Origin: a bacterium
GTDB lineage: Bacteria > UBP6 > UBA1177 > G963667425
Direction of reading: 5' to 3'
Assembly: GCA_963667425.1 (NCBI GenBank)
Contig: OY763407.1
Coordinates: 2,201,464-2,265,463 of the forward strand
DNA length: 64,000 nt
The position numbers and the translations under genes were made by a program. Below, piece after piece: positions 48,283 to 60,894 of this stretch; position 1 is the stretch's first letter, and each line of letters begins with the position of its first letter. The notes under the pieces were generated by a model. It did not search any database, was not told where the DNA came from, and saw only the letters and a program-made list of their open reading frames with translations.

Positions 48283-50979
48283 ATGCTGAGTCGTCTAAAA
48301 ATTGGTCACAAAATAGTGATGTCTTTCTCAATATTGCTACTTTTAAGTGGTTTTATTGGGTTCACAGGTTATCGTGGTCTTAATAATATTTTTGAAAAGA
48401 CAGAAGAAGTTGGTCAGACAAGACTCCCGAGTATTTATGGGCTTCTAACTATCAGCAGTGCACAAAGGTCTGTTATTACTGGCGAAAGAGGACTTGTAAA
48501 CAGACGTTTTACTGGCAATGTTAGGACTGCACAGTATGATTATATTCAAAATTCTCTTCAGATGGCTAAAAAAGGATGGGATGTTTATGAGCCTCTTCCT
48601 CAAACAAAAGAAGAGGACAAAATATGGCTGGAGTTTAAATCTGCCTGGGATAGTTGGAGATCAGAATCGGATAAGGTTGTTTCTTTAAGTAAAAATAAAG
48701 ATGCAATGCTTACTCAGGGCTTAAGTTCTGAATCAGAGGATCTTTCTAAAATAGATACTGAAATTTTTAATCAATCTATGGTTTCAAGAACGGCTTATCT
48801 TAAAACCGAAGAGCTTTTGAATAAACTTGTTGAAATAAATAGAGAGCTGGCATTGAAAGATGTAAAGCTTGCAGGAGAAGCAGCTGATTCATCAACAAAG
48901 ACTTTGTTTGCTGTAATAATTTTTTCAATAATTGTAGGCATAATACTTTCTCTGATTTTCAATAAGAATATATCAAGTATAATTTCTTCACTTCTTTCAG
49001 AAGTAGAAAATATTAATGATTCAATTAGCAATGGTCTTCTGGATAGAAGAATAGATGAAGAGAAAATAAATTTTGAGTTCAGACCAATAGTAAAAACAAC
49101 AAATTCTCTCATAAATACTTTTGTTTCACCAATAAATGTGATGGCGGAATATGTAGACAGGATTTCAAAGGGAAATATTCCTCCTAAAATAACAGATAAT
49201 TATAAAGGAGATTTTGTAGAGGTAAAAAATAATCTTAATAACTGTATAGATATAATGAACTCTCTTATAAATGAAACCGAAACTCTTACTAAAGGGATAG
49301 AAAATGGAAAACTTGACATAAGAAGTGATGCTTCAAGATTTATGGGCAGCTGGGGTTCTTTAGTAAAAGGAATAAATGATCTTGTAGATACATTTATAGC
49401 GCCGATAAACACAATGGCGGAATATGTTGAAAAAATATCAAGAGGAGAAATTCCAGCTAAAATAAGAGATGAATATAAAGGTGATTTCAAAGAAGTAAAA
49501 GAAAATTTAAATAGCGCTATTGATGCACTTAATGGTCTTGTTGAAGTAAAAAAAGTGCTTGCTAAAATGGCAGGAAACGATTTTACGGATGAAGTAAAAG
49601 GAACATATCTTGGCGTTTATGAAGATGTAAAACAGTCTGTCAACCTTGTATCAGACAGACTCAGACATGTTCAGGATATAATTGTAAATATTTCTAATGG
49701 TGATACCGGTGATCTTGAAAAACTTAGGAAAGGTGGAAAACGCTCTGAAAAAGATAATTTAGTTCCATCCTTTATAATGATGCTTGAATCTCTTACAGCT
49801 CTCATAAAAGGAGTTGAAGGTTATGCTGAACTTTCTTCAAAGGGAGAACTTGAAAAAATAAATCTTGATGAAAGTAGAATGAAAGGTGCCTACAGAGAGA
49901 TTTTTGCCGGACTTAATAAGGCCGTTAAGTCTACAGTAGAACCTTTGATGGAAACGCTTTCTGTTCTTAAGAAAATGGAACGTGGAGATTTTACAGGAGA
50001 GATAACAGGGAAATATGATGGTTCTTTCCTTATGCTTAAAAATGCAGTAAATAATTCAATTTCATCAATAAGTACTTTGCTTGGAGAAGTTACAAATACG
50101 ACAGCACAAGTATCAAGCGGGTCACAGCAGGTCTCAAGTGCATCGCAGACACTTTCTCAGGGAGCAACAGAACAGGCCTCAAGCCTTGAAGAAATTTCGA
50201 GTTCAATGCAGGAAATAGCCGGTCAGACAGGTAGAAATGCGGAAAATGCAGTAGAAGCAAATGGTCTTGCCGTGGAAACTACGAGTGTTGCGGAAAAAGG
50301 TACAGGACAGATGAATCAGCTTTTAAATGCAATGTCTGAAATACAGAAATCAAGTAACGAAATATCAAAAATTATTAAAGTAATAGATGAAATAGCCTTT
50401 CAGACAAATCTTCTTGCACTGAATGCAGCTGTTGAAGCAGCCAGAGCTGGTATTCATGGTAAAGGCTTTGCTGTTGTTGCGGAAGAAGTAAGAAACCTTG
50501 CAGCTAGAAGTGCAAAAGCGGCGAAAGAGACAGGGGAAATGATAGAAAATGCTGTCCAGAAATCCAATGCCGGAGCAGAAATGTCAAAAGATACTGCCGC
50601 TATACTGAGTCAAATAGTTTCCAATATATCTAAAGTTTCTAACATTGTTGCAGAAATAGCCGCTGCATCAAATGAGCAGGCTCAGGGTGCATCACAGATA
50701 AATATTGGTCTCAGTCAGGTTGAGCAGGTTACACAGTCAAATACTGCAAGTGCAGAGCAGTGTGCCGCGGCTTCGGAAGAACTTAGTAGCCAGGCAGCAT
50801 ATCTTGAAAGTATGCTTAAGAAGTTTGTTCTTAAAGATGATATGAGATCATTTAAATCTCAAGGTAGTATTGGAATGAGAGCAAGACAATCTTCTGCTAT
50901 AGAAAACAAACCTTCAAGAAGAGTTCAGACACCTGAAGAAATAATTTCTCTTGATGATGATTCTTTCGGTAAATACTAA
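48283..50979 (+). CDS. Methyl-accepting chemotaxis protein with four-helix-bundle-type sensor and multiple HAMP-like domains
   Basis: TM, RLPSI...YEPLPQT.EE sensor, TM, repeated GxIP.KI...YKGDF units, [21 protein letters not shown]-terminal SFGKY. Confidence 0.95.
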
Positions 50980-51197
50980 AATCAATCTCAAGAAAAGAAC
51001 GTCATAAAAACTATGTAAAATTCAAAACATCTTAAAAAAGATTCAAAATGTCCGATGTTTAAAAAAGTGTGAAATTTGGCATCACAGATTTTCTCTAAAC
51101 GTTGATACACAAGGGAAATAAATTTTCCAGTGTTTTAAAAAGTCAGAAAAAAGAAATATTAACCTCTAAAATCCATCAAAAAAAAGACTTCAATTAC

Positions 51198-51226
51198 TTG
51201 ACATTCGTAAATTACAGCGGTAATAA
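51198..51226 (+). promoter_or_regulatory. Putative sigma70 promoter
   Basis: TTGACA-17 nt-TAATAA upstream of the large protease gene. Confidence 0.45.
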
Positions 51227-51286
51227 ATTCAAAGTGACTTATTTAAAGCCCGTTTATTTTATTAATAAATTTCTGGAGAAAATGTT

Positions 51287-54200
51287 ATGAAAAGGTTCCT
51301 GTTTTTTTCCTGTTTTATTTTTGCATGCAGTTTTTTGTATGCAGTTTTTTGTATGCAGGAAGTTTCACTTCAGCTATTTCAACAGATGAAATAACTGTTG
51401 AAAAGTTAAATGGCTCAGCATATTTTACAGGAGCAGTATTAACAGCAATACCAGGTTATCCTGCTCTCCCAGTAACTGAAATAAACTTTCTTCTGCCTGA
51501 TGAAGCAAATCTTTCAACAGTCACAGCATACCTTGAAAACGGTTACCAGGAAACCATTTTTCCTGAAGAATGGGATGTTGAACCAGCACCGCCTGATATT
51601 TGCGGGGAAGAGATGACACCATGCTGGCATTCATCCCTGCATATATCAGATAATAGAGATACAGATGTCTATTCAATGAATTCATATATAAACGGCAAAT
51701 ATGTAGATACAGTAACAACAGGAAAAACCAGCGGATATAAGTTTGTAAGAGTTAAAGTTCTTCTCTTTGACTATAATCCGGCTGCAAAAAAATTAAAAAA
51801 GCTTGAGAACGCCAGACTCACAGTAACATTTTCAGGAGGAGACAATGAAATAACAATACCCTCAAGACTTTCTCCAAACAAACTTCAGGCACTAGCAAAA
51901 CTGCCGGAAGATTTTATAAACTATGATGAAATTGACTTTATAAATAACAATGTTGCCTTTTCAGCAATAGCAGGCAATGATCAGAATAAATACTATATAA
52001 TAACAACAGATGCAATATACAGTTCATCAGTACAGATGAAAAGATTTATAGCATCCAAAATGGCAAGAGGCTTTGAAGTTCATCTGGTGACAGAAGAATA
52101 TTCCATAATTAATAATGGAAAGAAAATGGGACTTACAGGCTGGGCAGGAGAAGTAGGACTAACAGGATATGAAGCAGCAGAAAAGATAAGAAGTTATCTT
52201 GTATCAAGACAGAACAAGATAGATTACCTTCTTTTAATAGGAGATCCACATCCAGGAGAATGTACCGGTCAGGATGCAGATGGTGATTATCTTCCCGGAT
52301 ACCAGTGCAATGATGGCGGAGATGTTCCAATGAAATGGATAAGCACAACAGCATTATCATCATGGATCGATTATTGTCAAGACAAGCCTAAACCTCATGA
52401 TTATTATGATTGTGTAAACATTGATGATCATGCAAGCCCAAAAAGAGCCACACCTTCAGATTATTATTATGCAGATCTGGACTCGAACTGGGATCATGAT
52501 GGAGACAAACTGATTGGAAACGATGTTACAGTCTATTGTCATGATTCATCTGCAACATCAGCAGAAAACTGTACTGACTGGAAAACAACAAAACTTGATG
52601 GTGCAATTAAAAGGATGTCCGATTCATCATATATAAACAGAACAGCAGAAGTCATAGTTGGCAGAATACCGGTTTACAATAACAACATAGATGATCTGGA
52701 CAGCATACTCTTAAAAACAATAAAATATGAAAACACAACAAAAGAAGGTGCGCAGTGGAGAAAAAACATATTTCTTCCAATGTATCCTTCAAATGTTAGC
52801 ACACCTAACTGGGAACTTGGAGAAGCGATAGTAAATAATTTTCTTCCGTCAGACTTTGAATATTACCGGTTTTATATCAGCGAAATATACAATGATTTTA
52901 ACTATAATAAAATTGGAGCATATACAAATATAAAAGGAAACCAAGGAACATCGTACAGAGAAATAGATGGAGTCAATGATGAATGTTATTACACAGTGGA
53001 TGATTATGGGATCCCCAATAATATCAGATATAAAAGTCTTGGTAATTCAAAATATCAGAAATATATATGTAAGGAATATAAAACAAATATAGATAAAAAC
53101 AGAACATTAAGATTAGCCTACTGGGACAAAGAAGGAGGAGAAGTAACACTGACCAGTCAAAATATTCCGCTGATAGAAAGCTGTAGCGAAGGAGAAGAGC
53201 GGTATACTGTCTGTTACGATACAGCATATCATTATGAAGAACAGATGAAACTTCAGCTTCAGCAGTGTGATTCATCAGGCAATTGGAATGATATTGAAAA
53301 TTCATGCAAAAATTTTAATGAAGTAAAAAGAACCTATTTTTTCTGTGAATATAACAGTAACAAAGAAGCCACATTTAAACTGTATAAATTTAATTCGGGT
53401 GAATGGACAGGAGAAGGAAGCTGCGTAACAGATTTAGATTCTGATATACCGTATATGGCACCTTTTCATGTAAGCAAATACTACAGATTTGACCTTCTTG
53501 AACCGGAAGAAGAAGCAGATATTGATCCTCTTTTTGGTTCAGTACCGACAACGCCTTCATATAAAAACATGCTGGATGTATTCAACAATTCTAAACAATT
53601 CGGAATTGTAACATGGAAAACACATGGGAGAGAAAATTACTCCAGTGAGCTAATAATAAATAATGATATTTTAGCAAAGAACCATGGTCATTATATTAAT
53701 TTTGATAATGAACATCCATTTTTTACAGTACAAGTAAGCTGCCTGAATGCAAAACCGGAATATAACAGAAACGTAGCATATGCATTACTTTTAAATGGAG
53801 CTGTGGGAACAATTGCATCAACAAGAGAATCCGGCTATAACTCAAGTGAATTTGATGAAAAAACTGAGAAGTTTACAAACACAGATTTAGAAGGCAATAA
53901 TACAGGAAACAATGCTTCTTTGGGCTACTTTTTTACCCGAGAACTCACTGGAACAAGATTTAAAGAACCTCAGGATACAGGGCATGCTCTGTTTAACACA
54001 AAAGCTGATAATTATTCAAATATTAACAACAACAATCGTTACAATCTTTATGGAGACCCATCACTCAGCATCAACACCTACTATGATGAAAGAGATAGAG
54101 ATGATGATGGAATACGAGACAGTTTTGATACATGCCCTGAAATTCCAAATCCGGATCAGGCAGATATGGATGGAGACGGAGTCGGAGATGTCTGCGACAA

Positions 54201-56913
54201 CTGCATAAAGATACCCAACCCATACGAAGCAGCTTCATTTGCAGATGAGCTCATAAATGGAGAATGCGTAATAGATCATGATACAGATGGAAATTGTACA
54301 GAAGAAGGAGATGGCGGAGCATACCGCAACAAAGATACCCATAAACACGGTTATCCTGTCAACCCTGATCTTATCTATTTCGGTCCGTACATGTGGCAGC
54401 CAGATCACGATCTTGACGGCGAAGGCGATGCCTGTGACAAGGATTACAAATATGTACAAACAGCAAAAGAGGAAAAAAACAGCGTAACCGGAGGGGGCTG
54501 TAAATGGGAAGGTAAAATAGAATTCTGTAACGTAACAACCACATTAAATGATAAAATCGGCATAATAAACAATAAAACAGGTTCACAGAAAACAGTAACA
54601 GGAACAGTTGACAGCCGTTTCTGCTGGGTTGATGATTCAAATCTTAACAAATGGGGAACAGAAGGCTACTGTACAACAAATTTCGGTTCAGCAGGGCTCC
54701 CTCCCATATTTGGAGGCTTTGGTTACAGCCACGGTAGCGACCCACACCCTATGAGAGGTATTAAAATTGAATCGTGGAAAAAAATATCAACATCCAAAAT
54801 ATGTGACAGCACAGGAGAAACATACAGCAATGCTGAACCGCCGCAGAATAACAACAATCAGGAAACTATTACATGGGACTGGAAAGAAGATATAAAATGT
54901 GAATCTCTTGATAGTTATACTGCCAATATAACAAACTATCAGACAGTTACAGATAAAAAATATCTTAATACATTCTTTCACTACACAACATCAGCAGGAT
55001 TCAGAGGAACAGAGCTAAATGTATCCTACACAATAGGAACAGAAGCAACAAGTCCTGTTAATCCTAAATACTTTTACAACAAGGCAACATTTGCAAGAGC
55101 AAACAGATCACAGGCAACCCCTACATCAATAGGATACGGGGTAGTCGGCAGAAGATTCCCGAGAGGCTTTTTCTGGGAATATCTCTATCCATATCCTGAT
55201 TACGGTTTTGATAAAGATATGTGCCCGAACTGCGGACCTAGAGACAGGATAAGCAGAGATATTATGAATAGATGGAAAGAAGAACCTTTACATGAAGCAG
55301 TTTCAGTAGAAACCATAAGAATGGAGCCGGAAGGCGCCGTAATGGAAATAGGAGACAACCTTTATAAATTCAGCAGAGGAACAGAAAACTACTGGTACAT
55401 GTGGGGAAATGAAGAAAGCAGAAGAAGTGACTGGCAGCTTATGGCAGTAGTTTCAGCAGGAGCAGCAGAACCATATTCAGCAGCTAAAGTAGGAAACACT
55501 ACATATATAACCGAAGGAACAGGAGTCTACTATGTTGGAATATACAACATTCTTCAACAGGCATCAGCATTAAACAGCACAAGTGCGGAAAATCAGGCAA
55601 CAATAAACACAGCCAGACTCTACTATGCAGCTGAACTTCCATCAGTAAGAAAACCAAACCTTATAAACATAAACGACACACTCTATCTTCTTGGAAACGG
55701 CTCAAGCGTAATGGAACTCTACAAACTCTCATCAGAAAAAACATTTGAAAAAGTAAGCACCTTAAATGCGCCGGCAATAAGAGACAGAATAAACTACAAA
55801 GTAATAAATGGAGCGCTTTACATAGCAGGAGGCGGAAACTATACAAATGAAGAATATGGAATAAGCCCAAAAACAGATCTATGGCAGTACACAGAAGAAA
55901 GCGGATTTAATAAAATCACAGATTCACTACCAAAAGAAGGAATATTCAACCTCTTCATAACAGCCACAGCAGACAAAGCCATACTCTACACCAAACAGAT
56001 AAACGATGAAGGTAAAACCCTTAAAAGAGAAGTAGACCTTGAAACAGGAGAAATAACAACAACAGAAACAGCAGTAAAAGGCTGGACAAACAATATACTC
56101 TATAACGAAGGTTACTGCATATACGACACAGGAAGCAGAATATACCCCGGAATCCTTAAGGAAGGAAGCTGCACAAAACAGTCAGATTACAACTATGACA
56201 GCCACACATACTTTGACTATAAAAAGACAGTAGCAGGCTGGAACAACCATCTCTACCTTGGAGGACTCAGCGGAATAAGAGAAATAACAATAGAAGAAGA
56301 CGGAGACCTCAACAAAGAAAAACTCCACTGGTTAGGGAACATCAACAACATAGCAGTAAAAGACAACTACCTCTATGGAGCAGGAGGCAATAAAATAGAA
56401 ATCCTCAAAATAGAAAGTGATGGAAGCCTCAGCGGAAAGAACGCCCTTTCAACCAAAGACTGTGACAACATAAGAATACACGGAAGCTATTTAATAGCCG
56501 GAGAAAACAAAAAAGTTACAATATGGGACATAAGCACACTCGAAAACCCCAAAAAAGTAAAAACCATAAGTGTAGACTATCCTGTAAAAGATATAGAAAT
56601 CGGCGGAAACTATCTTTACATCTATCATGACAAGCTATTCAAAACAGGAAAGCTGGCACTTTACGACATAAGTGATATACTTAATCCGGTAAAGAAAGAT
56701 GAAGAAAAGAAAGAATGTAATGACGCAGAGCTTACAGTAAGCGGAGGCGAAGTATACATGGGCTGCAAGAACGGACAGTACAAAGCAGTAAACAGTAACG
56801 GCTCATTAAGCCTTAAGAAAATGAGCGGAGAAAAGAACTACATGAGAGAAGCCTACTACTACAATGGAATAATATATCAGGTATTTTCCGGCAAACTCCA
56901 TGAATCAAAATAA
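51287..56913 (+). CDS. Large C25 (gingipain-like) cysteine peptidase with propeptide, TSP3 repeats and C-terminal beta-propeller-like repeats; signal peptide frameshifted (intact ORF 51325-56913)
   Basis: PGYPALP propeptide, YYIITT, YLLLIGDP, PSDYYYADL, VGRIP, WKTHG and VSCLN candidate dyad, YNLYGDP; DRDDDGI..D.CP..NPDQ.D.DGDGVGDVCD repeats; LVIVD-like WDIS/YDISD. Confidence 0.85.
51325..51358 (+). repeat. 14-bp tandem duplication (ATGCAGTTTTTTGT x2 plus ATGCAG)
   Basis: Read directly: 51325-51338, 51339-51352, partial 51353-51358. Confidence 0.95.
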
Positions 56914-56930
56914 TTAATGTGTTTTATTGT

Positions 56931-56957
56931 GTAGCGACGCCCCTATGGGCGTCGTTT
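56931..56957 (+). repeat. GTAG-type REP-like palindrome, copy 1
   Basis: GTAGCGACGCCCCTATGGGCGTCGTTT; stem CGACGCCC/GGGCGTCG; identical to 60178-60204. Confidence 0.85.
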
Positions 56958-56968
56958 ATGAGGAAACG

Positions 56969-58591
56969 ATGAAAAGAACAATTCTTTTAACCTTTTTAAT
57001 ATTATTTGTTTTTTCAATAACAGGATGTGATAAAGATAAAGCAGAAACTGACGGAGATGTCATCACTGATGCTGACGTTATAACAGATGTTGACACCATT
57101 AAAGATGCAGATGCTTCAGTTCCCGATGAAGACACAGACATTCAACCGGATCTTGACACAGAAAAGCCTGACATAGATGACATATGTGCTCAACCAATAG
57201 ACTATTCTTTACTTCCATTTAAAGATGACAAAGGCAACATTCACTTCTGTAGAGAAGGATGTGACATTCCAACTGCAAACGACCCGCAATGCCTAAGCAA
57301 TCTCTGGAAAGAGGATAATGAATATTTCTGCAAAAACTATCCTGAATATGACTGCTGCAACTATCCATGTGATCTGAATAATTTAATTCCAACCTACAAA
57401 GGAGAAGGAACAAACTATCCAACACTTATGGAATGTGATATAGCACTTAATGCAAACAATCCTAATTTGTGGCAGACAGGCTACTACACATTTAAAAATT
57501 TTAACTTTCAGGATGGAAAGATTGGTTTTCCCATGTATAATGTTCAAAGCACATTTACAAGACATATAAACAGCGTAAAAGCATTTGAATATGATATTAA
57601 AACAAAAAAATACAGCGTAAAAAGCCTGACTGATGCCAGTTTACTTGCCTACAATAAAGGAAACTTCTTTACATACGTAACCACTAAAGATTCCTTATAC
57701 AGTACAATAGTCTATTACTCCAATGGAGTGCATAGAACAGTATATCCTAAAGCAGTAAGAAATATAGCATATACACCGGTAATAACAGATAAGTGGGCAT
57801 TTGCAAATATAAGAGAAAAAGAAGGTGAATCAGTCTACATGAAATATGCTCTTATCAAAGAATACAATGGAAACGCAAGTTATGAAAACATTGTATGGAA
57901 CTGGATAACCCTTTCTGAAGGAATAGCAAATGACCCCAACATAGTTGATGACAGACTTGTATTTTACGGAGACGGATTTAAAGGTTATATATGTGAGCTT
58001 GACAAAGAGCCTAAATCGCTTGATGAATGCAAAGTGATTAACAGAACCATTGATGGAAAAATGGAAGAACTTAGATATGCATGGATGGACAGTGAAAACA
58101 AAAACCTTATCTATTTTTCACCGGTAGAGATGAGAGATGGATTTATGAGGTTAGATACATCAAAAGAACCGTGGGAGTATAAAAAGTTTACAGTACAAAA
58201 TTTAATGGAAGACACTTATGATGTTGCTGTAACTTTTGTAAAAGGAAATTTATTATCATATATAAATATTTCATGGCCTGACGGAGACAGAGATAAACAA
58301 AAAAACAATCTTTGTATGTATAGACTTGATCAGGAAAAAAGCTACTGTTCACCAATAGAAGAAAGAACTACTGCCGCTTATACAGAATTTGACGAGCACT
58401 ATATAGCATGGCAGCTGCCCGGTAACCCAGAACTCCATTTAAGAGATATGGAATGTTACTGCGACCTTCACCCTGAAGTCTGCCCTTATGATGACTACAC
58501 CCCAAACACTGAATGTCCTAAAAACATAAAGACAGGCAAACATGAATGCACGGATGCTGATAATGAATCACCTGATGAAGATGCTGAATGA
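56969..58591 (+). CDS. Cys-rich lipoprotein, tandem paralogue 1
   Basis: MKRTILLTFLILFVFSITGC lipobox, acidic linker; GAGG RBS before ATG at 56969. Confidence 0.86.
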   Translation: MKRTILLTFLILFVFSITGCDKDKAETDGDVITDADVITDVDTIKDADASVPDEDTDIQPDLDTEKPDIDDICAQPIDYSLLPFKDDKGNIHFCREGCDIPTANDPQCLSNLWKEDNEYFCKNYPEYDCCNYPCDLNNLIPTYKGEGTNYPTLMECDIALNANNPNLWQTGYYTFKNFNFQDGKIGFPMYNVQSTFTRHINSVKAFEYDIKTKKYSVKSLTDASLLAYNKGNFFTYVTTKDSLYSTIVYYSNGVHRTVYPKAVRNIAYTPVITDKWAFANIREKEGESVYMKYALIKEYNGNASYENIVWNWITLSEGIANDPNIVDDRLVFYGDGFKGYICELDKEPKSLDECKVINRTIDGKMEELRYAWMDSENKNLIYFSPVEMRDGFMRLDTSKEPWEYKKFTVQNLMEDTYDVAVTFVKGNLLSYINISWPDGDRDKQKNNLCMYRLDQEKSYCSPIEERTTAAYTEFDEHYIAWQLPGNPELHLRDMECYCDLHPEVCPYDDYTPNTECPKNIKTGKHECTDADNESPDEDAE

Positions 58592-60159
58592 AAAGAACAA
58601 TTTTTTCAAGCTTTTTAATATTATTTGTTTTTTCAATAACAGGATGTGATGAAGATAAAGCAGAAACTGACGGAGATGTCATCACTGATGCTGACGTTAT
58701 AACAGATATTGACACAGCCCAGGATGCAGATGCTTCAGTTCCCGATGAAGACACAGACATTCAACCGGATCTTGACACAGAAAAGCCTGATGAAGACAAA
58801 TGTCCATCAATAGACACATATACACTTCCATTTAAAGATGACAAAGGCAACATTCACTTCTGTAGAGAAGGATGTGACATTCCAACTGCAAACGATCCGC
58901 AGTGCCTAAGCAATCTCTGGAAAGAAGATAATGAATATTTCTGCAAAAACTATCCTGAATATGACTGTTGCAACTATCCATGTGATATGGATAATTTACA
59001 GCCTGCATATAAAGAAAATGAGCCGGAAATTAATATCTGTGATACAGAAATAAATGCAATTAATCCTTATGGCTGGAATACAGGCTACTACACATTTAAA
59101 AACTTTAACTTTCAGGATGGAAAGATCGGTTTTCCAATGTATAATGTTCAAAGCACATTTACAAGACATATAAACAGCGTAAAAGCATTTGAATATGATA
59201 TTAAAACAAAAAAATACAGCGTAAAAAGCCTGACTGGCGGAGATATGCTTGCATACAATAACGGCAACTTTTTTACATATATAAAAATAAAAGATACAGT
59301 AAAACATCTTATAACCTACTATTCCAATGGAACATACAGAACAGTCTACCCAACAACTATTAGAAATATAGCATATACACCGGTAATAACAGATAAGTGG
59401 GCATTTGCCAATATAAGAGAAAAAGAAGGTGAATCAGTCTACATGAAATATGCTCTTATCAAAGAATACAATGGAAACGCAAGTTATGAAAACATTGTAT
59501 GGAACTGGATAACCCTTGCAGCAGGAATAGCCAACGACCCCAACATAGTTGATGACAGGCTTGTATTTTACGCTGATGGATTTAAAGGCTATATATGCGA
59601 GCTTGACAAAGAACCAAAGTCAATTGATGAATGCAAACTGATTAACAGAACCATTGATGGAAAAATGGAAGAGATAAGACAGTCATGGATGGACAGTGAA
59701 AACAAAAACCTGATATACTTTTCACCTGTAGATATGACAGATGGATTTATGAGATTAGATACATCAAAAGATCCTTGGGAGTATAAAAAGTTTACAGTAA
59801 CTAAAACTTATACAGACACCTATGATGTAGCTATCGCTCAAGTCAAAGGGAAATATATAGTTTACGAAAATATAATCTGGCCGAATGGAGATAGAGATGA
59901 ACAGGATAACATTGTCTGTCTTTACAGGATAGATCAGGAAAAAAGTTACTGCCCGGCAGATGGAGACAGAGCTTTTGGAGCATATGCAGAATTTGACGGA
60001 CACTACATAGCATGGCAGCTGCCAAGCAACCCTGAACTACATTTAAGAGATATGGAATGCTACTGTGACCATCACCCTGAAGTATGCCCTTATGATGATT
60101 ACACCCCAAACACTGAGTGCCCTAAAAACATAAAGACAGGTGAACATGAATGCAAATAA
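58588..60159 (+). CDS. Cys-rich lipoprotein, tandem paralogue 2
   Basis: Same lipobox; long identical blocks with paralogue 1; ATGA overlap. Confidence 0.88.
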   Translation: MKRTIFSSFLILFVFSITGCDEDKAETDGDVITDADVITDIDTAQDADASVPDEDTDIQPDLDTEKPDEDKCPSIDTYTLPFKDDKGNIHFCREGCDIPTANDPQCLSNLWKEDNEYFCKNYPEYDCCNYPCDMDNLQPAYKENEPEINICDTEINAINPYGWNTGYYTFKNFNFQDGKIGFPMYNVQSTFTRHINSVKAFEYDIKTKKYSVKSLTGGDMLAYNNGNFFTYIKIKDTVKHLITYYSNGTYRTVYPTTIRNIAYTPVITDKWAFANIREKEGESVYMKYALIKEYNGNASYENIVWNWITLAAGIANDPNIVDDRLVFYADGFKGYICELDKEPKSIDECKLINRTIDGKMEEIRQSWMDSENKNLIYFSPVDMTDGFMRLDTSKDPWEYKKFTVTKTYTDTYDVAIAQVKGKYIVYENIIWPNGDRDEQDNIVCLYRIDQEKSYCPADGDRAFGAYAEFDGHYIAWQLPSNPELHLRDMECYCDHHPEVCPYDDYTPNTECPKNIKTGEHECK

Positions 60160-60267: not shown

Positions 60268-60894
60268 TCATTTTATAAAAAGATTTAGTTCCAATGCTAT
60301 AATATTTGAAACTGCATGAAATAAGACAGCATAAAAAATATTGCTCCTACTTTTTTCTGTAAACCATCCAAATAAAAGTGAAGGAAAGAAAGTACTCATT
60401 CTTAAAGGATTTAAAAACGAAATAGCATGAGCTGTTCCAAAAATAAAAGAGGTCATCAAATTCTTTTTTGTAAGAATAAAGAAAACTTTTTTATTGTGTT
60501 TTTTAAAAATAGTTTCCTGTAACCATCCTCTAAAAAAAAGCTCTTCAGGAAGAGCAACAACAATACCAAGAAGAAGACCATAAAAAAAGTTTGAAACAAC
60601 GGCTGAAATTTCAGGTAAGTGAAAATGTGCTTTTTCAAATAATAAAAACCATCCAAAAAAAAGCGGAGGATATAAGATAGCAGTTGCAGCTGAGATTAAT
60701 AAAAATGGTTTTATCCCTTCCAAGTTTAATTTGAGAAACTCTGCCCATCTAAATTTTTTGTCAAGAATATGTGGCAGAGCAAGGAGTATCAATGGGAAAA
60801 ACACACTTCTCCATTTAAAAAAAGTAAGATTCATAATCAATGCTGTTGTTGTAAGTACGGCGAAAGCGATAAAAGCTTTTGTATAATTTTTCAT
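60268..60894 (-). CDS. CPBP (Abi/CAAX) family intramembrane glutamic endopeptidase, myxosortase-like
   Basis: PEELFFRGWLQ (EExxxR), FGTAH, TFFPSLLFGW, HAVSN; multiple TM segments. Confidence 0.88.
   Translation of the reverse strand: MKNYTKAFIAFAVLTTTALIMNLTFFKWRSVFFPLILLALPHILDKKFRWAEFLKLNLEGIKPFLLISAATAILYPPLFFGWFLLFEKAHFHLPEISAVVSNFFYGLLLGIVVALPEELFFRGWLQETIFKKHNKKVFFILTKKNLMTSFIFGTAHAISFLNPLRMSTFFPSLLFGWFTEKSRSNIFYAVLFHAVSNIIALELNLFIK

Follow-up and report, generated by a model that had tools for sequence, protein, structure and literature searches.

How does the gene for a very large protease come to stand out of frame with its own signal peptide, and is the break lasting, reversible or only apparent? 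This question is raised by a locus in the 64,000-nt stretch of contig OY763407.1 analysed here (positions 2,201,464 to 2,265,463; the window, whose own coordinates are used below unless the prefix C1 marks those of the whole contig), where a 14-nt tandem repeat in the leader codons separates the start codon at 51287 from a long open reading frame (ORF) at 51325..56913. A preliminary description of the locus had offered three answers: a reversible OFF state, a very recent knock-out, or an assembly artefact. We found that the 14-nt tandem duplication frameshifting the signal peptide is real. With the extra 14 nt absent from two paralogues, the rest of the gene intact and the duplicated form the sole allele seen, at single-copy depth, the second answer fitted best, as a recent knock-out by slipped-strand duplication that affects one gene of a redundant family and is revertible in principle (probability about 0.62).

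The leader begins with a Shine-Dalgarno-like GGAG (51275-51278, plus strand), 8 nt before the ATG at 51287. The frame that starts there is truncated to 35 codons (51287..51394, plus strand); it reads MKRFLFFSCFIFACSFLYAVFCMQEVSLQLFQQMK and ends at a TAA at 51392-51394. These codons comprise the original start, n-region and h-region of a signal peptide, followed by 16 out-of-frame codons and the TAA, and the first 19 residues align with the signal peptides of the paralogues. Ribosome-binding motif, start, frame slip and stop all lie where the preliminary description had placed them. A two-codon mini-frame, ATG TTA TGA (ATGttATGa, 51282-51290), overlaps the main start; the paralogue has ATTG there.

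Within the leader, two tandem copies of ATGCAGTTTTTTGT (51325-51338, then 51339-51352) precede a partial ATGCAG. Tandem Repeats Finder (TRF) delimited an array at 51318..51358 (plus strand) with a period of 14, 2.9 copies, 96% matches and a score of 75, made up of the units TTTTTGCATGCAGT, TTTTTGTATGCAGT and TTTTTGTATGCAG. The first unit differs by one base (GCATGCAG vs GTATGCAG), and what had been called a duplication is more exactly a third unit, next to two that were already 13/14 alike. The long ORF lies in the +2 (= -1) frame relative to ATG 51287 and, read upstream, meets no stop as far as 51247 (1888-1889 codons). By frame arithmetic the register is restored by the loss of 14 nt or the gain of 1 nt anywhere in 51287-51392; a T7 tract in the leader codons (51302..51308, plus strand) is one place where +1 would do so, and T6 tracts stand at 51331-51336 and 51345-51350. 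With the ORF offset of +2, the earlier arithmetic, by which one copy fewer or one T more repairs the frame, was right.

The genome is 2.95 Mb long, in one contig (C1), with 34.5% G+C. TRF returned 737 arrays genome-wide, 242 of them with a non-triplet period, and the leader array ranked sixth of the 242 by score. Eight non-triplet arrays scored at least 70, among which it was the only one inside an open frame of more than 65 codons. Just one other perfect non-triplet array scored similarly, AAGGAATATTAGGA x2.7 at C1:293790-293898, which adjoins TAGAATA x4.1 and lies outside any long open frame.

The state of the leader without the extra unit can be read from the gene's paralogues in the same genome. 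One is full-length (C1:1405487-1411294, minus strand; 70% identity, 1922-aa product), a second lies at C1:2628907-2633817 (minus strand; 1630 aa from its start), and a third has only the C-terminal half in common with the gene; their open frames are intact, at 1935, 1636 and 1544 codons. The first two read MKKLWLFFCFFFAFSLLYAGSFTT... and MKRLWLFSCFLFAFSLLYAGSFTT... in a single frame, with a signal peptide of the form MK[KR]-hydrophobic-LYA|GSFT, and GGAG, GAGG or GAG stands 7-9 nt upstream of the paralogues' starts. A DNA alignment of the three 5' regions showed a clean 14-nt gap in both paralogues exactly at the array, which bears out the view that a duplication of this length broke the frame and speaks for the array as no mere product of chance. 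At the array position the paralogues carry TTTGCATTCAGTTTATTGTATGCAGG, a more degenerate two-unit version, and this was all that was conserved of the tract among the family members. Two base differences from the paralogues (TTC to TGC, TTA to TTT) make the ancestral units of the present gene more alike, and two such near-identical units are the substrate expected for replication slippage, by which the third may have arisen.

The family also shows signs of exchange between its members. Over its final ~600 nt (56220-56819) the protease gene matches the paralogue at C1:1405487-1411294 with 97-98% identity, vs 46-70% in mid-gene, a mosaic pattern that is typical of recent intra-family gene conversion and points to it here. 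Such conversion is also a possible route of repair.

Sequencing reads gave the same three units. Five runs were listed, of which X1 and X2, from the same sample, contained 0.98 and 0.93 of the sampled words; this sample is probably the assembly's own source, and the comparison tests assembler error rather than providing an independent view of the population. Over 50900-51900 each of the two runs yielded one 607-nt unitig at 51243-51849 with 0 differences and 0 gaps, at a depth of 31.3 (X1) and 15.7 (X2) vs 30.2 and 16 in the single-copy flanks. No indel, 14-nt joint, or shorter or longer allele was listed at the array in these unitigs. Since the unitig runs unbroken through the array, any path that had gained or lost a unit must have been too scarce to be retained, with the limit that contigs drop rare variants and an allele present at a few per cent or less would escape detection. 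In the population sampled, the three-unit allele dominates and may stand alone.

The only joint that was listed runs from 51155 to 51334 (depth 27 and 24). It was rejected as a 178-nt deletion allele, since both of its 30-mers recur at paralogous loci with 1-3 mismatches. The added depth seen in bins 51308-51375 matches exactly the contribution of 30 letters from the paralogue unitig. Runs X3 and X5 had no unitig on 50900-51900, and the five listed runs included no RNA data. Those with a small share of the sampled words are wastewater metagenomes, which is no evidence of habitat.

The long ORF (51325..56913, plus strand; 1862 codons from the first in-frame ATG) was characterised by its sequence, by Pfam and by profile search. 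As the preliminary description had stated, it contains no stop, and we found no other lesion over the 1862 codons. Its product comprises, in order, a gingipain-type propeptide, Peptidase_C25, thrombospondin type 3 repeats and a C-terminal LVIVD/beta-propeller-like region. A full-length Pfam scan found only the thrombospondin type 3 repeats and a weak LVIVD repeat and missed the C25 domain; when residues 201-900 were scanned alone, Peptidase_C25 (PF01364) was recovered with an E value of 7.1e-24 and 85.2 bits against a cut-off of 23, so that the earlier label of protease was well chosen. Among 43 homologues found with residues 1-500, 27 bear PF01364 and/or the gingipain propeptide PF08126, and a profile of 26 aligned homologues matched the prodomains of Kgp (5MUN, 5.6e-12) and RgpB (4IEF, 3.9e-09). 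H767, G768 and C806 are invariant in all 26 aligned sequences, and H767 and C806 are presumably the catalytic dyad of clan CD peptidases.

In all eight homologues that were fetched, MK[KR] and then a hydrophobic stretch form the N-terminus, which indicates that the family needs its leader. In this allele the Sec signal peptide is out of frame with the zymogen; in both paralogues and in 8/8 homologues it is in frame. Judged from these sequence features, the protein looks like a secreted pro-peptidase whose necessary leader is now cut off by the extra unit. It resembles RgpB and Kgp of Porphyromonas gingivalis (PF01364 plus propeptide PF08126) in the order of signal peptide, prodomain and C25 domain. 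However, it is much larger (~1.9k aa), it carries thrombospondin-3 and LVIVD repeats, and its host is uncultured.

Other searches with the protein returned little. A phmmer search against the Protein Data Bank gave thrombospondin repeats only, or nothing; NCBIfam matches were far below the cut-offs; and Pfam scans revealed no C-terminal domain of the type IX secretion kind. In a large protein collection, the precomputed Pfam entry of the 1862-aa protein holds only PF02412. For the long multi-domain proteins of this C25 family, annotation as peptidases is probably incomplete. A conserved Cys-rich tail (...CDGYNTNNCSDDGW) is found at the end of distant homologues of the protease, and the present protein is without such a tail. 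A 208-aa CPBP/myxosortase-family intramembrane protease is encoded just downstream of the protease operon (60268-60894, minus strand), with an Mrt_core score of 86.2 bits, below the cut-off of 100. A sorting link between the Cys-rich tail and this CPBP/myxosortase-family protease is possible.

Comparisons beyond this genome were limited by the position of its host, an uncultured environmental bacterium whose nearest MnmG sequences, at 55-57% identity, come from rumen and other metagenome-assembled genomes, some of them labelled uncultured Spirochaetales; its family and genus have no representative other than the source genome. No orthologue of the protease locus was found in 40 relatives, the other matches being only 37-95 nt long (E 1.9e-5 to 8.8e-4), and a search of a genome contig collection revealed no relative. 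A collection of 5.8 billion proteins contained the identical 1862-aa protein, then the genome's own paralogue (79%, residues 1-500), and none closer than 35% identity beyond these. Exact-pattern scans of metagenome contigs gave 0 matches, both with the two array flanks separated by a 19-47-nt gap and with the 24-mer just 3' of the array. The public gene call starts at 51325. Annotation should mark the gene's leader as frameshifted, as public calls now present a signal-less, seemingly intact protein of 1862 aa.

Upstream of the leader lies a conserved element of ~180 nt (51033..51215, plus strand), detected by blastn against the genome itself and ending at a -35-like TTGACA. The genome holds nine copies, of which the eight others are 76-91% identical to 51033-51215 (C1:2633871-2634055, 1411323-1411504, 1587189-1587369, 1386246-1386426, 999867-1000043, 2901331-2901503, 2051940-2052108 and 2180596-2180789), and the element stands at a multi-copy read depth of 300-575 vs ~31. 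Every copy precedes a gene whose product has an N-terminal hydrophobic leader; these genes include three of the C25 family, a second paralogue trio starting MMKTKVMLFF..., a lipoprotein-like gene and others. The motif TGTTTAAAAAAGT occurs twice in the element, ~77 nt apart. It looks like the shared regulatory region of a secreted-protein regulon. It does not look like an RNA, given 0 matches in Rfam and a weak consensus fold (-12.6 and -13.3 kcal/mol over ~190 nt). By eye, a putative promoter can be placed at 51198..51226 (plus strand), with TTGACA at 51198-51203, a 17-nt spacer and TAATAA at 51221-51226, and most copies of the element share TTGACA with a TAA at 17 nt. A consensus promoter scan, which demands T at position 6 of the second hexamer, made no call at 51198-51226.

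Two genes without a family match follow the protease on the plus strand. The first (56927..58591, 554 codons) begins 13 nt after the protease stop and is likely to belong to the same operon; the second (58588..60159, 523 codons) overlaps the stop of the first by 4 nt. Paralogous copies of these genes stand behind the paralogous protease, with 57-88% identity for the region downstream. In the present allele ~5.5 kb of untranslated message would lie ahead of the two genes, and they are therefore likely to be exposed to polarity.

The duplication, its absence from the paralogues, its consequences for the frame, the domain make-up and the presence of the array in reads are direct observations, and from them we infer slippage, loss of export, polarity and a recent date. 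The ancestral leader would already have held two near-identical 14-nt units (13/14 alike), to which replication slippage would have added a third. With it, the frame is displaced by +2 downstream of signal-peptide codon 19. Ribosomes starting at the GGAG-led ATG 51287 would make a 35-residue peptide and stop at 51394. The 1862-codon C25 pro-peptidase body would then have no export signal that it could use and would probably go largely untranslated, and the two genes that follow would be likely to suffer polar effects. The event looks recent because the 1862 codons hold no other lesion and the GGAG, the TTGACA box and the shared upstream element have been kept. The knock-out would be tolerated because the paralogues are intact, two of them full-length and a third with the C-terminal half, and reversion would be possible through the loss of one unit. 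The allele is thus probably an ordinary mutation, a mutation-prone and in principle revertible knock-out, with no evolved switch proven. It would offer a clean example of a chance near-repeat in TTT/TTG-rich hydrophobic-core codons seeding a duplication that silences one redundant secreted protease.

Several points weigh against this interpretation. The ORF is intact and the promoter-like region and Shine-Dalgarno motif are conserved, and a switch caught in its OFF state would look identical. An array of three 14-mer units is more prone to slippage than ordinary sequence, and it may revert often enough to be of consequence. The reads supply unitigs of a single sample, probably the assembly's source, from one strain at one time point, and an ON allele at a few per cent or less would be missing from such contigs. 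Finally, some product could still arise from ATG 51325 or from a -1 slip at a T_TTT_TTG heptamer.

It is extremely improbable that the extra unit is an error of assembly or polishing and that the organism truly carries the in-frame two-unit form. Short tandem repeats can be mis-resolved, and the two runs, being from one sample that probably supplied the assembly, are not independent. However, the unitigs were built by a different method and reproduce the three units exactly in both runs, over 607 nt, with no difference and at a depth equal to that of the flanks, and they list no alternative path, indel or 14-nt joint. The errors typical of long reads are homopolymer indels, not clean 14-nt duplications. 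The artefact suggested by the preliminary description is therefore disfavoured. It is rather unlikely, too, that the gene is still productive, whether by a start at ATG 51325 with a shortened but exporting N-terminus or by one-base slippage of a fraction of the ribosomes or RNA polymerases in the T tracts. Gene callers accept ATG 51325, and the ORF shows no further decay. However, this ATG sits 38 nt inside an actively initiated frame and has no purine-rich Shine-Dalgarno motif before it, whereas GGAG or GAGG precedes 51287 and the paralogue starts. Its product, MQFFVCSFLYA|GSFTS, has no basic n-region and about half of the hydrophobic core, and so is without the MK[KR] n-region seen in 8/8 homologues and both paralogues. 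As for slippage, the -1 frame is the one that carries the long ORF, and T_TTT_TTG (51331..51337, plus strand), a heptamer in the X_XXY_YYZ register of frame 51287, is a speculative candidate site at which a -1 slip would bring the MKR start and the long ORF into one protein with a longer hydrophobic core; with the frame of the long ORF open from 51247, any such shift would read through. However, no stimulatory structure was found at the usual distance of 5-9 nt beyond the heptamer (z is -1.63 for the fold of 51338-51440), and the arrangement is not conserved, both paralogues being simply in a single frame and the homologues having an ordinary leader, so that frameshifting is no family trait. 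The T6-T7 tracts are also shorter than the runs of about 9 or more at which transcriptional slippage is efficient. Low-level leakage of the long ORF is possible; a programmed frameshift mechanism is unlikely.

The remaining alternative holds that the array is an evolved contingency switch in which slipped-strand gain and loss of a unit toggles the protease operon, ON with two units and OFF with three; we consider this unlikely. It is favoured by a repeat in signal-peptide codons whose unit length is not a multiple of 3, by the two base differences from the paralogues that bring the ancestral units closer to identity, and by the intact state of the remaining gene and control region. Adjacent units also pair as RNA hairpins (-10.8 to -12.1 kcal/mol, z -3.0 to -5.8); these unit hairpins span 51321-51344 and 51332-51360 and overlap the heptamer. 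As DNA, however, the hairpins are weak (-4.6 and -2.9 kcal/mol, z -1.8 and -0.4), and we rejected them as a driver of slippage. A single allele was seen in the two runs, the array has only 2.9 copies, neither paralogue has a comparable perfect repeat, and the gene occurs in no related genome that was found. The genome, moreover, is almost without simple-sequence repeats, with 0 perfect repeats of 4-8-nt units in at least 5 copies, 0 dinucleotide runs of at least 7 copies, 1 trinucleotide run, 2 G/C homopolymers of at least 7 and 24 A/T homopolymers of at least 10. It gives no sign of a dedicated hypermutable system, and an array that is the sole high-scoring non-triplet one in a long ORF does not make a phasome. 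Reversible phase variation, as proposed earlier, is thus possible as a mechanism, but no second allele, second strain or comparable paralogue repeat speaks for it. Section 6 of PMC11868660 characterises phase variation by a change at a single locus, reversibility in both directions and a rate of ~1 in 1e5 without selection; of these three features the leader array displays the first, as one 14-nt unit in the leader codons sets the frame, with a presumed effect on expression.

The third unit also places a 10-pair RNA hairpin (-11 kcal/mol, 51321-51354) directly before TTTTTTGTAT, and a two-unit form would be without this arrangement. The combination of a terminator-like hairpin with a T run was given no weight, there being 13 such sites in 20 kb vs 9.8 +/- 3.5 in shuffles. 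A bolder proposal, which we regard as very doubtful, is that the partly self-complementary 14-nt unit forms a true contingency switch that is OFF twice over, through the frameshift and through a terminator-like hairpin of units 1 and 2 before U6. On the contingency-switch interpretation the locus may be an opa-like leader switch with an unusually long unit, in 2-3 copies, in a deep-branching Spirochaetales-like host whose genome has hardly any other simple-sequence repeats. If both alleles did occur in the population, leader-repeat phase variation would gain a long repeat unit and a little-known lineage among its examples.

A recent, revertible knock-out and an evolved switch have different counterparts among known systems. 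In Neisseria opa, pentamer CTCTT coding repeats lie in the signal-peptide region, in many copies and in all family members, and switch at high rates. The protease leader is like opa in that a secreted or surface protein from a multi-copy family has, among its leader codons, a repeat whose unit length is not divisible by 3, with the copy number setting the frame. It differs in that the 14-nt unit is present in 2.9 copies, that one of three paralogues carries the array and that no variation was observed. Phase variation of opa is listed in the history table of PMC11868660 and in PMC5953494.

Closer in form are cases of tandem duplication for which ON/OFF switching has been documented. In cap3A of the pneumococcal type 3 capsule, spontaneous tandem duplications revert by precise loss (Waite et al. 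2001, as cited in PMC11163986), and phcA of Ralstonia solanacearum has a tandem-duplication OFF allele that likewise reverts by precise loss (Poussier et al. 2003, as cited in 10.1101/2023.04.27.538605). Reversion is not uniform in such mutants: for S. aureus agr, PMC6686034 describes one duplication-plus-inversion mutant that reverted and another duplication mutant that did not. In cap3A and phcA, as those citing sources present them, a short direct duplication within the ORF frameshifts the gene, losing one copy restores it and no long microsatellite is needed, all of which would hold for the protease leader as well. However, both directions of switching were observed in culture there, whereas only the duplicated state, in one sample, is seen here, and the present duplication extends a pre-existing two-unit near-repeat.

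Short repeats that mutate readily without being switches form a further group. The CTGG x3 repeat of lacI is a mutation hotspot at a short repeat. The 7C tract of siaD and the 8C tract of mga are treated in section 6 of PMC11868660 as mutation-prone short repeats rather than evolved switches. The protease leader shares with lacI, siaD and mga the pattern of a short chance repeat that gains a unit and inactivates its gene, with reversion possible but rare, which belongs to the class called mutation-prone; it differs from them in that its unit is longer (14 nt) and partly self-complementary.

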